Shown here piece after piece: positions 17,129 to 26,486 of a DNA stretch of 64,000 nucleotides (position 1 is its first letter; each line of letters begins with the position of its first letter). Where the stretch lies: NCBI GenBank assembly GCA_963693365.1, contig CAVNZM010000008.1, positions 248,001-312,000 on the forward strand, in the 5' to 3' direction. The notes under the pieces are model-generated. The model worked only from the letters and a program-made list of their open reading frames with translations, was not told the DNA's origin and did no database searches. Made by a program: the position numbers and the translations under genes. The DNA comes from Amoebidium appalachense (taxonomy: Eukaryota; Protista; Ichthyosporea).

Positions 17129-17810
17129 TCACAACCCAACCCGATACTGGCCCAGCGACATTGGTCTTCGGCTCATCTGTGTGGGTGTGAGGATGGGCAT
17201 GTGGGTCAGTAGGTGTGTGCGTGTGAACTGGGTGGGTGTGGACGTGGGTTGGGGGGGGGGGGGGGGGGGGGGGAGGGGGGATTAGGGGGTGACGGTCACC
17301 TTTGAAGGGGAACTCTGCTGCATCTGAGGGAAAAAGTTGCCCAATGGCTGTGTCTTGTAGCCTCCCAGGGCCGGTAGTGGATTCAGCAGGGAATCGCTAC
17401 CTGCTCCCACACAGGTTAGTGGAGGGAGAGGGCCGGGGGGGGGGGGGGGGGGGGGGGGTGGCAGCAACAGGGCAAGATGCATGAACCATATTAGAGAAGG
17501 CTGCCTTCAAGGCTAATGGCTGGGTGGATTGTGTGGCCACCTGTGTGCTGCTGTGTATGTATGGCCACATGGCATAGGTCACTGATGGGTGCCAAGCACC
17601 CGTGCGGCACAAAAACACAGCCAGCACCCCCATAAACCCTTTGCAATAATCCGGAGTTCTACTTCCCATTGGCGCGCCTAACCTTACCGGCCTGCATTCC
17701 CCCACATACATACATCACCACCACCACCACGGCACACACACACACACACACACACAGGCATACACAAAGAAAGACATGTGCACACACATATGCACATGCA
17801 AAAGCAAACC

Positions 17811-17855
<45 letters not shown>

Positions 17856-17891
17856 CACACACGTGCATACACACACACATGCACACACGTG

Positions 17892-17925
<34 letters not shown>

Positions 17926-18227
17926 CACACACGTGCATACACACACACATACACACATGCACACACGTGCGCACCCACCCACATCCACGCCCACCCACCA
18001 ACCCATAAACACACACATGGGCACACCCACCCACCCATCCCACGCCCCCACACACCCACATACACGTGCACATCTACACACACCTAGCAACATGGCCTCC
18101 GTGGTGCTCTGCATCAGGTCGAGGGTCCTTCCATATAAGGCAGGTGCCTGGTCTGGCTGGCTGCAGTGCCGTCGGATAACCTCGATCACGTGCTCCTGAC
18201 CATGTGACTTGGCCCTGTGGATGTGTG

Positions 18228-23260: not shown

Positions 23261-23295
<35 letters not shown>

Positions 23296-26136
23296 TCAGT
23301 ACGTCTTGCATGGTGGTGTCCTGCATGGCCAGGCCGTCCAGAAGAGGCACCGAGTAGCTGCGGCTGCTGCGCCCTAACATACTGGACCCCTCGTAGGCCA
23401 GTCCCTCAAGACCCTGCACACCGTCAGCACGTGCAGGCCACAACCTGTACACACATGTGTGTGCACTCCCAGCAGGCAGAACAGATATGCATGGGTGTGG
23501 CCGGGGCCTTTCTTGTCACCGGGTGCTTGCATGTGTGTGGCTGGGGCCTTGCTTGATGTGGGTGCATGCAATATGGATAATTATTGAGCGGCTGTGCATA
23601 CGTGAGCTGTGCGTGCACCAGTGACCAGCATGGTGAGCATGCAACCTGGTGGTGTGGTCGCATGGTTACGCATCTGCAGGTTCATCGCACACATGGGTGT
23701 TTGTTTATATGCACGTGTGGATCTGTGGCACCAGCAATGACGGGTGCTCTGTGTGCACAGGTGCATGTGCTGTGTTTGCACATGTTCATGTGTGGGTGCT
23801 ATATATGCACATGTTCATGTGTGGGTGCGACATATGCACATGTTCATGTGTGGGTGCTATATATGCACATGTTCATGTGTGGGTGCGACATATGCACATG
23901 TTCATGTGTGGGTGCGACATATGCACATGTTCATGTGTGGGTGCTATATATGCACATGTTCATGTGTGGGTGCGACATATGCACATGTTCATGTGTGGGT
24001 GCGACATATGCACATGTTCATGTGTGGGTGCTATATATGCACATGTTCATGTGTGGGTGCTATATATGCACATGTTCATGTGTGGGTGCGACATATGCAC
24101 ATGTGTAGCACAAGTGCAGTGCGTGGCGTGCGCATGTGTGGGTGCTGCATGTGCCCATACATGTGGTATCCATGGGGCACGTACCACCTGTTGCTGTACG
24201 GGCCAGGGATTGAAGATGCTGTCGTCTGTGGGGACACTTTCTGGCCGGTGCATGCTGCTGGCTGCAGGGGGACAGGTCAGCACAGTGGCTTGCTACCACA
24301 ATGGGTGGATGATGACTCTATTACCAGAACCAAGGGGGTGATTCAGAGCCGACTCCTTTACATGAATGGGGAGGGGAGGGGGGAGGAGAGGGTGGGGGGA
24401 AGGGGGGAGGGGGAGGGGGTTTCAAAGCTGAGTTAAGGGAATGTGAATTATAGCTAACCTTTTGGCCATGATTGAGCGCAGTTAGTCGAGAGCTGAACCT
24501 TCTTACCAGAATCGAAAGTAGGCATCAGAAAATCAGAGTGTAGCATATTGCCATAGTCGAGGGCACGCCTCATAAGTCAGAGCTTACTCTATTGCCAGAA
24601 TCGAAGGGGGGAATGCAGTGCAAAAGATGGCGAGGAAGGTAAACACTGTTGCGTGCAGGTCATACCGTGAACCGATGGGGCCTGGAGAGGGGGGAGGGGG
24701 GTGAAAGGAGGGTTAGGGGGACGGGGGAAAGGGGGGGGGGGGGGGGGAAGAACAGGGGGCCTATGGGGAGGCACAAAGAGATGGGACTAACCTGTGATGG
24801 AGCGTGTGCGCTGTTTCATGCCGTGCTGTGGCACATCTGCAGGGCAACAGCAAGGGCTCAGTACACATCATGCAACACACATGGCCCATGCATGCAACCA
24901 CATGGCTTCGTTTACGTATGTGTGACCAGCTATATCAGGTCGCATGGACATCACTAGATCATACGTCAAGCATGCACGTGCACATGTCGACACCACTTGA
25001 CTTGCCCCGACACCACACATTCTATCCCACCTAATCACCCACTATGCATGTGGCCACTATGCTGCCCCACCACCACCACCACCACCACACCCCATCACCC
25101 CCCGCATGCACACATCAGCCAGCCAACAGGGATAGGGGGCACGCACTCATCAGCATCATGGGGTCCATCCGCATGGGCAGGGTGGGTGGCGGGAGCAGCA
25201 GCGGGGAGAATTCTGCATGTTTGTGTCAGCGTGGACTGCCAAGTATGGAAGTGTAAGCCAATCGGAGTCACGTCCCTTTCCTAGCCCATTCAACACTACA
25301 GCTACAAACGGTCTCTTCCGTGCCGGCATGTACAAGGACCAGGGCAGACATAGTGGCAAGACTGACTGTGGGTGTGCCTTGTAGCAGCCCCATGATGACC
25401 CGGTGTGCACGGTGGTGAGCCAGTATCAGACTGGTGGCATGATACGAGGAGGGGGGAAGGGGTGGGGGGGGGGGTAGGATTGGGAAGCATCAAAATTTGG
25501 AGAAGGGGAAGGGGGGGGATGGTATGAATGAAGCATGCAGCAAGTACACAGGCACAGGTCAAAGGGCTAGTACAGTGCATGTGTTGGCCTAGCAGCCACA
25601 ATGATGCTTAAAGCACACACATACCTCTGTGGTACGGCATGATGGGCCGGTCAGGCAGCCGTGGCCGTGAGCGGGGCCCACGTGGCCCATCTACAGTCAC
25701 CTGGGGCCAGGGGTCAGCAATGTGGAACAGGGGGCACAGTGGTGGAAGTTGATGCAACAAGGGAAGAATCTGCCAAGAAAACACACTGCACATTCACGAC
25801 GGACATCACCACGCACACTATGTAAAAAGACATCACACAAGCACTATACATCTTTTTTTTTTTTTTTGTTGGGGGGAGGGGGGGGCAAGGTAGGGCACCT
25901 TTATTACTTCGTAGAGATAGGCGGTCTGGGGGGGGCTGGTGTGCACGGTCAGGGCCAGGGTCAGGCTCTTGCCCCTCCCACTGCGGCCCACAAAGCGCAG
26001 GTCATCAAACGTGGCCGTGCCCCCGAAAAACACCGCCGTGCTGTTGCGCAGCGCCGCACTGGGATTCTCGTCGTTGCTGGCACTCACAGTCACCTCAGTG
26101 CCGTCAGCTATAGGAACTAGCGCATGCACCTGTGTG

Positions 26137-26214
<78 letters not shown>

Positions 26215-26486
26215 ATGGGGGGGTGGGGAGGGGGACGGGGGAGGCAATGGTTGGCATGGTGCATGCAGTACAATGAAGACCACAAGGCCAAACCCATGAC
26301 ATCCTGATGGCCCCAGGTAGAGCAGCATGCACTCAGTAGGGGGGCAGGGCACCTTGAACTGGGCAGGCAGGCTCTTGTTGCAGCGCCAGTGGTTGGGCAG
26401 GGGACTCGTGACAAAGTCGGGGCTGCTGGTGGCCACGTGCCTGCCCACGTCAGCATGCGGCCCATCCTCACTGTCCATGGCCCACC
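17129..26486 (-). CDS. RUNX: Runx-family transcription factor: Runt domain, low-complexity linker, IPT/TIG-like domain and ankyrin repeats
   Basis: Minus exons 26486-26353, 26129-25899 and 25700-25625 (Runt); 25212-25147, 24261-24185, 23413-23303, 22869-22785 and 21621-21553 (P/S/M-rich linker); about 21165-21086 and 20040-19856 (IPT); 19479-19406, about 19242-19205 and about 18870-18735; 18506-18394 and 18214-18084 (ANK); 17400 to about 17300 and a possible last exon 17176-17129. Phases chain from the Runt exons to the first IPT exon, and most acceptors have CTRAY branch points. Boundaries around 20.7-21.1 kb and 18.6-18.9 kb and the 3' end are uncertain. Confidence 0.75.
18084..18506 (-). 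CDS. Ankyrin-repeat exons (about 2 repeats)
   Basis: [54 protein letters not shown] is a canonical ANK repeat followed by a capping repeat. Confidence 0.9.
19520..19833 (+). repeat. 35-bp minisatellite (cacacagacatggggatgaatcgcacgtgcacata), about 9 copies
   Basis: Fills most of one intron of the Runx-like gene. Confidence 0.95.
19856..21165 (-). CDS. IPT/TIG-like Ig-fold domain exons of the Runx-like gene
   Basis: [22 protein letters not shown] matches the IPT start pattern (x-I-x-P-x-x-G-P-x-G-T-x-V-x-I). [21 protein letters not shown]...ANTHRFTV matches the IPT end pattern (L-x-C-x-x-P...G-x-V-x-V...S-N...F-T-Y). Pattern recognition only; no HMM was run. Confidence 0.65.
22088..22770 (+). 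repeat. 12-bp minisatellite (catgcacacaga/catgcacacaca), more than 50 copies
   Basis: Directly visible; it produces the spurious MHTD/QTCT ORFs. Confidence 0.97.
23062..23195 (-). repeat. Dispersed ~170-bp intronic repeat, copy B
   Basis: Plus strand reads tacgaagtacg...gagtatgaataataaagagagcccatcttcaggggtggctcaggtcat, preceded by a T-run and a G-run. Confidence 0.7.
23777..24105 (+). repeat. 29-bp minisatellite (gcacatgttcatgtgtgggtgcgacatat), about 11 copies
   Basis: Two alternating variants (gcgacat and gctatat) in an intron of the Runx-like gene. Confidence 0.95.
25660..26450 (-). CDS. RUNX: Runt DNA-binding domain (3 exons)
   Basis: [115 protein letters not shown] aligns colinearly with the Runt consensus ([46 protein letters not shown]). 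Confidence 0.97.

Follow-up and report, generated by a model that had tools for sequence, protein, structure and literature searches.

A Runx gene of Amoebidium appalachense that joins a Runt domain to a predicted IPT-like fold and two ankyrin repeats

Runx transcription factors govern the development of blood, bone and neurons, and Runx is a leukaemia gene. In the usual view they consist of a Runt domain flanked by disordered tails, and they work with a partner encoded separately. How could a Runx have worked before that partner, CBF-beta, and the C-terminal WRPY motif? A gene of the ichthyosporean Amoebidium appalachense raises this question. It lies in the 64-kb stretch of DNA analysed here (the window; contig CAVNZM010000008.1, positions 248,001 to 312,000), where an earlier note, made from the letters alone, had read a Runt domain followed by an IPT domain and ankyrin (ANK) repeats. 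Our analyses indicate that this is almost certainly one spliced gene, encoding a Runt domain, a predicted IPT-fold domain, two helices and two ANK repeats. The best explanation, to which we give a probability of roughly 60%, is a Runx whose IPT-helix part pairs the protein with itself and so takes the role that CBF-beta has in animal Runx.

The gene runs from 26486 to 17129 on the minus strand (Table 1). Our model has 18 exons, and in a splice-site and frame check all acceptors were AG and 17 of 17 donors were GT. The exon chain forms a single open frame of 607 amino acids without an internal stop (605 counted from the first Met), and the first exon model had at least 10 stops in each of the two alternative frames. 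We call the product of this model the window protein. A profile built from seven relatives (see below), with the window row removed, was run over the raw window, split into 2078 six-frame segments. Exons 15, 14, 12, 10 and 11 took the first five ranks and lie in the same order as their matches in the profile, whose columns were derived from an alignment that had included the window model. The spliced IPT segment scored 71 bits by this profile, and the best of 1000 shuffles scored 5.0. Exons 17 and 18 are modelled without homology or RNA backing, and the 3' tail is the least certain part of the gene. The first Runt intron (26130-26352, minus strand) is in phase 0, and its position is presumably common to vertebrate RUNX1.

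Sequenced contigs cover the first half of this chain. They come from three runs (X1-X3) of one sample in one study and mapped to 22772-26130; that they are RNA is a guess, with which their intron-skipping joints agree. Record 1 of the X1 contigs (1124 nt, depth 223) holds spliced pieces over exons 2-8, and its mapped letters (695 nt) equal the modelled exon sum exactly. Four joints with GT-AG ends were listed in X1, and the same four recurred in X2. A 27-letter loose end at 22782 is identical to window positions 21592-21618, the start of exon 9; with a bridge threshold of 31 letters, the join of exons 8 and 9 is supported more weakly than the others. Because the contigs join exons 2-8 and the loose end matches exon 9, the transcript appears to continue past the Runt domain to 21.6 kb. 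The claim of one gene with an in-phase exon chain was thus borne out, and the junction check proposed with it found no transcript end between 25.6 and 21.6 kb; the IPT-ANK exons lie outside the mapped region. The RNA also shifted two donors of our first model (to 24185 for exon 6 and 22785 for exon 8) and kept the frame. Some 296 nt of record 1 lie upstream of exon 1, so the gene probably extends further 5', with an N-terminus beyond that exon. Exon 8 has two in-frame donors 12 nt apart (22773-22785, minus strand), and the X1 and X2 contigs both stop at 22782, as at a branch in splicing. A separate X1 contig of 216 nt (depth 4) lies within intron 6 (23475-23690) and may stem from a retained intron or from DNA sequenced along with the RNA.

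The Runt domain is well preserved on its DNA side. Exon 2 alone is enough for Pfam to recognise it (PF00853; 94.9 bits, cut-off 27), and it is 54-61% identical to 14 animal-type rows over 127 columns. In the alignment the window protein keeps 11 of 11 RUNX1 DNA-contact residues, in what we take to be their list and numbering. Since all these contacts are kept, and since open chromatin of Capsaspora shows enrichment for a Runx-like motif (PMC4877666), the domain likely binds Runx-type DNA sites. On the CBF-beta side, the window protein is changed relative to RUNX1 at T161, Y113, M106 and G108; according to PMC5668496, CBF-beta binds less well when certain residues, T161 and Y113 among them, are mutated. 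None of the 9 non-animal rows keeps T161, compared with 243 of the 262 others, and none keeps Y113, compared with 177 of the 262; the others include two mis-trimmed proteins (P0225 and P0232) and one unicellular-type fragment (P0233). For G108, which we take to be a CBF-beta contact as well, the counts are 1 of 9 and 259 of 262. The alignment thus suggests that CBF-beta contact residues are eroded in non-animal Runx, in part through general divergence. None of the 9 non-animal rows has a WRP motif, and 170 of the 262 others end in one. No WRP occurs anywhere in the window model, whose last two exons are uncertain, yet none of 8 relatives has one either.

The architecture, which the earlier note did not know from elsewhere but thought might have been reported in unicellular holozoans, is not a one-off. 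A search with the Runt exon gave 23 matches, including P0016 and P0005, and a full search with P0016 added five further full-length proteins and one fragment among the best 150 of 11075 matches. Among the matches listed, the full-length non-animal Runx proteins numbered seven: Capsaspora CAOG_00880 (XP_004365751.1, A0A0D2WJA2), Clim_evm63s172 (a prefix that we read as Corallochytrium) and, from four ichthyosporean genera, the proteins of Ichthyophonus, Sphaeroforma, Creolimax (two) and Chromosphaera; a 212-aa Runx fragment came from Sphaerothecum. All seven align with the window protein through the Runt domain, the linker, a beta-rich domain, two helices and two ANK repeats. CAOG_00880 and the other six (P0146, P0151, P0154, P0005, P0016 and P0145) share its domain order over the whole conserved length, a homologous IPT-helix-ANK block, the same DNA-contact residues and the lack of WRPY, and they differ from it only by lineage-level divergence. 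The C-terminal half of the window protein matched six relatives at 34-103 bits, and the best other of 287 stored proteins reached 21 bits. Pfam placed Ank above the cut-off in five of the seven relatives and weakly in two, and TIG in none; their annotation labels read "hypothetical" or "Runt domain-containing".

A profile of the IPT-helix-ANK block had no match (best E 0.72) in the other 263 of 269 stored Runt-motif proteins, which are animal where named and include a ctenophore cluster, as well as two fragments of non-animal type that stop short of the block. Among the best 120 of 1900 matches to the Runt region, P0016 was accompanied by 119 others, animal where named, and none of the 119 had Ank. 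Of 1921 candidates in a word-based search with residues 340-600 of P0016, the single match was P0016. Animal Runx (RUNX1-3, Runt, Lozenge) resembles the window protein in the Runt domain and its identical DNA-contact residues, but has no IPT-ANK block, mostly ends in WRPY and keeps the CBF-beta contacts, whereas the window protein has the block, lacks WRPY and shows eroded contacts. In the Runt tree the window protein fell outside the animal group (support 85/80), with no other placement among the non-animal rows; a tree of the joined conserved blocks, in which P0225 and P0232 were mis-trimmed, did not place it. An ichthyophonid ichthyosporean origin is suggested by its best scores and by the insert that its IPT has in common with those proteins. 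Two metagenome loci were rejected: L001 was a short match inside unrelated sequence, and L002 lay on the strand opposite a long open reading frame resembling bacterial topoisomerase I. The Runt domain of P0233, a Logan protein of 248 aa, groups with the non-animal rows; the protein ends soon after it, and its contig might hold the module in another lineage.

What is the beta-rich domain? No TIG or related Pfam profile matched at E up to 1-10 in the window exons, the whole relatives or trimmed stretches, nor did PDB sequences searched by profile give a TIG match for this domain. Pairwise BLAST of exon 12 against P0016 was not significant. Recognising the domain takes a comparison of folds. AF2 with a 12-row alignment folded the Ichthyophonus stretch into a beta-sandwich (predicted local distance difference test, pLDDT, 89-97 over residues 1-100) followed by two long helices (about 60); single-sequence AF2 of P0016 was unusable (pLDDT 35.5). 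With the Ichthyophonus model, Foldseek gave some of its highest ranks, at E 5e-5 to 2e-4, to the NF-kB p65/p50 dimerisation domains and the IPT of EBF1. VIA-align gave Z scores of 10.4 for MET, 10.3 for EBF1, 9.9 for plexin, 9.8 for EBF3, 9.7 for p52 and 9.4 for both NFAT5 and the CAMTA1 TIG. These IPT/TIG matches had a root-mean-square deviation of 1.9-2.4 over 81-89 residues, and Z reached at least 8 in 23 of 48161 chains; the list covered model residues 1-107 and hence little of the helices. The window IPT segment is homologous to the relatives at 55-71 bits. ESM features computed on the Capsaspora and Chromosphaera stretches from IPT to ANK lay near plant TIG/Ank, RHD+Ank, Spt23/Mga2 and CAMTA clusters (0.90-0.96); without ANK, the TIG and RHD_dimer clusters came at 0.77-0.82, which is below 0.9 and a lead only. 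An IPT/TIG fold is thus supported by the models for the homologous domain, with fold scores that tie within 1 Z across the candidate families. The IPT call of the earlier note, which would have fallen had no such fold been detected, stands by the fold of the homolog; Pfam did not see it, and recognised only the Runt and Ank parts of the proposed domain set.

Pfam found Ank (PF00023) in exon 15 at 25.9 bits against a cut-off of 21.1, and alignment with the relatives gives two repeats in exons 15-16, in agreement with the "about two" proposed before. In all eight proteins (the window protein and seven relatives) the IPT lies 158-469 aa after the Runt domain. This spacing is closer to CAMTA and Spt23 than to NF-kB, as the IPT does not adjoin the DNA-binding domain; the earlier note had placed the cassette nearer to CAMTA/Spt23 than to IkB. 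A pattern search found no IQ motif after the ANK repeats in any of the eight. The best 19-aa hydropathy after the repeats was at most 0.93 in the eight proteins, so no membrane anchor was seen. After the IPT, a glycine-rich patch occurs in three of the eight (5 G in 20 in the window protein and Chromosphaera, 8 in 20 in one Creolimax protein), and the other five have at most 3 G in 20; a conserved glycine-rich region before a long ANK array, as judged by at least 5 G in 20, is not present, with two ANK repeats only. Pfam gave no RHD in the scanned window exons or relatives and no CG-1 in the scanned relatives; the DNA-binding domain is Runt.

Outside Runx, several known systems have similar layouts. 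NF-kB p105/p100 (RHD, IPT, glycine-rich region, ANK) likewise has an Ig-fold DNA-binding domain, then IPT, then ANK, and its p65/p50/p52 IPT domains match in fold; it differs in having Rel rather than Runt, an adjoining IPT, a glycine-rich region and a longer ANK array. CAMTA (CG-1, TIG, ANK, IQ) resembles it in the long linker that precedes TIG and in the helices and small number of ANK repeats that follow, but has CG-1 in place of Runt and an IQ motif. Spt23/Mga2 (IPT, two ANK, transmembrane anchor) shares the succession of IPT and about two ANK repeats, with ESM clusters at 0.91, whereas its DNA-binding domain is another one and its transmembrane segment is absent from the tail here. EBF/COE (DNA-binding domain, IPT, HLH) also has helices after the IPT, which in EBF1 was the best transcription-factor match; EBF has no ANK, and the helices here, mostly beyond the compared residues, were not matched to HLH.

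We interpret these likenesses as follows. The Runt domain would bind Runx-type sites and the linker, rich in P, S, M and Q, would act as an activation region. The IPT and helices would self-associate as in NF-kB and EBF, which would give avidity in place of CBF-beta, and the two ANK repeats would serve as a pad on which partners bind, and not as a wrap of the IkB kind. We put the chances of these three assignments (dimerising IPT-helix part, activating linker, ANK pad) at about even. Homologous copies of the block occur in a filasterean, in a probable corallochytrean and in ichthyosporeans. The block is therefore likely older than the divergence of these lineages from that of animals, and animals would have lost it, which we regard as quite probable on the sequences compared. 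One could go further and picture the ancestral Runx as a self-dimerising, ankyrin-regulated factor of NF-kB/CAMTA type, with an IPT-ANK cassette of common descent with those of NF-kB, CAMTA and Spt23/Mga2; the animal stem would have shed the cassette and passed its jobs to CBF-beta and a WRPY-Groucho tail. This is possible, if doubtful.

Several observations weigh against a self-pairing Runx of pre-animal age. With a Z of 10.8, a domain of a bacterial amylase headed the VIA-align list, and Foldseek likewise ranked CopC high; as the sandwich fold is common to such non-dimerising domains, it gives no function by itself. The predicted fold is that of the homolog from Ichthyophonus, which scores 55 bits to the window segment, and not that of the window protein itself; TIG was seen by none of the sequence methods. 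The RNA evidence comes from one sample only and ends at exon 9, one intron before the IPT exons. On the CBF-beta side, N109 is kept in 7 of 9 non-animal rows, including the window protein, and M106, although changed there, also varies among animals (143 of 262). In the wider CBF-beta-side set, 9 of 18 residues of the window protein are identical to RUNX1; since the rest of the Runt domain is also only 62% identical, the erosion is partly general divergence. The trees do not resolve the order of the non-animal rows. Choanoflagellate Runx, named sponge Runx and the second Capsaspora Runt gene are outside the sampled set.

Which other readings could account for this gene? The IPT-helix-ANK part might be a module at which other proteins or a signal dock, a role also suggested for CAMTA, on a Runx that binds DNA as a monomer. 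The distance between Runt and IPT makes a rigid NF-kB-like DNA clamp impossible, the CAMTA1 TIG ties in Z with the NF-kB and EBF domains, and the IPT-to-ANK ESM lists contain plant TIG/Ank, CAMTA and Spt23/Mga2 clusters; the IQ motif is missing from all eight proteins, however, and the top Foldseek rows are dimerisation domains, so we hold docking to be somewhat unlikely. It is improbable that the protein is a precursor like p105/p100 or Spt23, kept inactive by its ANK part until proteasomal processing frees Runt, linker and IPT. The domain order matches, Capsaspora NF-kB stays cytoplasmic until C-terminal truncation (PMC13042239), and a short glycine-rich patch is present in three proteins, but the other five lack it, there are only two ANK repeats, and the missing hydrophobic tail excludes an anchor of Spt23/Mga2 type. 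The control by processing that the earlier note had considered therefore finds little support.

Two further readings concern history and the gene model. The module could be old and animal Runx could descend from a module-less paralogue, with no loss in animals. Capsaspora has two Runt genes according to the supplement of PMC3753549, one of which is represented here, and the two divergent module-bearing copies of Creolimax imply an early duplication. Against such a paralogue, which we consider unlikely, seven of seven full-length non-animal Runx proteins among the matches listed carry the module, on both deep branches of the Runt tree. That Runt and IPT-ANK belong to two adjacent genes, their fusion being a model artefact, is barely credible: the RNA mapping does not cover the exon 9-10 junction or the 3' exons, but no stop interrupts the RNA on its way from Runt into exon 9, exon 9 ends at a phase-matched GT donor, and each of the seven relatives, which were annotated independently, has its domains in this order within one protein. 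A self-pairing Runx thus remains our preferred reading.

Capsaspora Runx was first described by Sebe-Pedros in 2011, in a paper that reportedly found no CBF-beta or WRPY there and that may mention the ankyrin repeats. We found no description of a Runx with ankyrin or IPT in the literature searched, outside which lay figures, subscription papers, bioRxiv supplements and that original 2011 paper. The layout is not mentioned in the accessible parts of PMC6040629, PMC10317990, PMC11286789, PMC10845976, PMC8763368, PMC6478125, PMC3753549, PMC4877666, PMC5668496 and PMC13042239; the available supplements of PMC4739763 gave no match, and a term search of the available part of PMC5560861 found no Runx or ankyrin. 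Runt with Ank can already be seen in precomputed Pfam annotation, including that of P0016, but the combination is rare there, and the IPT is unannotated. If a pre-animal Runx had its own IPT and ankyrin module, this would offer an answer to how the factor functioned when neither CBF-beta nor WRPY was yet in place. Runx would then also join the Ig-fold factors paired with IPT (NF-kB, NFAT, EBF, CSL). As Capsaspora Runx has the module, the question is directly testable there.

Table 1 Exons of the Runx gene model and a candidate upstream exon (window positions)
Feature	Position	Strand	Evidence
Exon 1: first in-frame Met, Runt domain start; upstream exon(s) likely	26353..26486	-	AG/GT and frame; alignment to relatives' Runt
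Exon 2: Runt core	25899..26129	-	Pfam Runt E 3.7e-27; RNA contigs
Exon 3: Runt end, C-terminal DNA-contact residues and basic patch	25625..25700	-	RNA contigs; alignment
Exon 4: P/S/M-rich linker	25147..25212	-	RNA joint 25212/25625
Exon 5: linker	24792..24836	-	RNA joints 24836/25147, 24261/24792
Exon 6: linker, donor fixed by RNA	24185..24261	-	RNA joint skipping 771 nt; frame check
Exon 7: linker	23303..23413	-	RNA pieces
Exon 8: linker, donor fixed by RNA; second in-frame donor 22773 possible	22785..22869	-	RNA pieces and loose end
Exon 9: final linker exon	21553..21621	-	27-letter loose end of X1 contig equals exon start
Exon 10: IPT-like domain, first strands	21087..21165	-	Profile scan rank 4/2078; alignment
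Exon 11: IPT-like domain, helical insert common to ichthyophonid proteins	20458..20523	-	Profile scan rank 5/2078; alignments
Exon 12: IPT-like domain, last strands	19856..20040	-	Profile scan rank 3/2078; fold of Ichthyophonus homolog
Exon 13: first post-IPT helix	19406..19479	-	Alignment; helix in homolog model, pLDDT ~60
Exon 14: helix 2 and the conserved motif ahead of ANK	18735..18869	-	Profile scan rank 2/2078; alignment
Exon 15: ankyrin repeat 1, repeat 2 start	18394..18506	-	Pfam Ank above cut-off; 46% identity to P0016; profile scan rank 1/2078
Exon 16: ankyrin repeat 2 end, tail start	18084..18214	-	Alignment; AG/GT and frame
Exon 17: tail, among least certain	17300..17400	-	AG/GT and frame only
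Exon 18: end of tail with stop codon, lacks WRPY; among least certain	17129..17176	-	AG and frame only
Candidate upstream coding exon	29526..29607	-	Top splice-site score, phase-compatible open segments at 26.6-32 kb

The introns of the Runx gene contain tandem repeats at 19518-19833 (a 35-mer, nine copies), 22089-22771 (a 12-mer, 57 copies) and 23777-24104 (a 29-mer, 11 copies), and most also carry CA and poly-C runs. Elsewhere in the window, a frame at 59490-59771 (minus strand) gave a weak LAGLIDADG_2 match below the cut-off, which is probably due to chance; by eye we take this frame to be closer to an exon of a ubiquitin-specific protease. An open frame of 307 codons at 124-1044 (minus strand) matched RNase H above the cut-off and is likely the end of a retroelement. 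Aldo/keto reductase exons lie at 3604-6152 (plus strand). Downstream of the Runx gene and facing it, a multi-exon SRP54 gene occupies 8836-15917 (plus strand), with Pfam SRP54_N and SRP54 on three exon frames.

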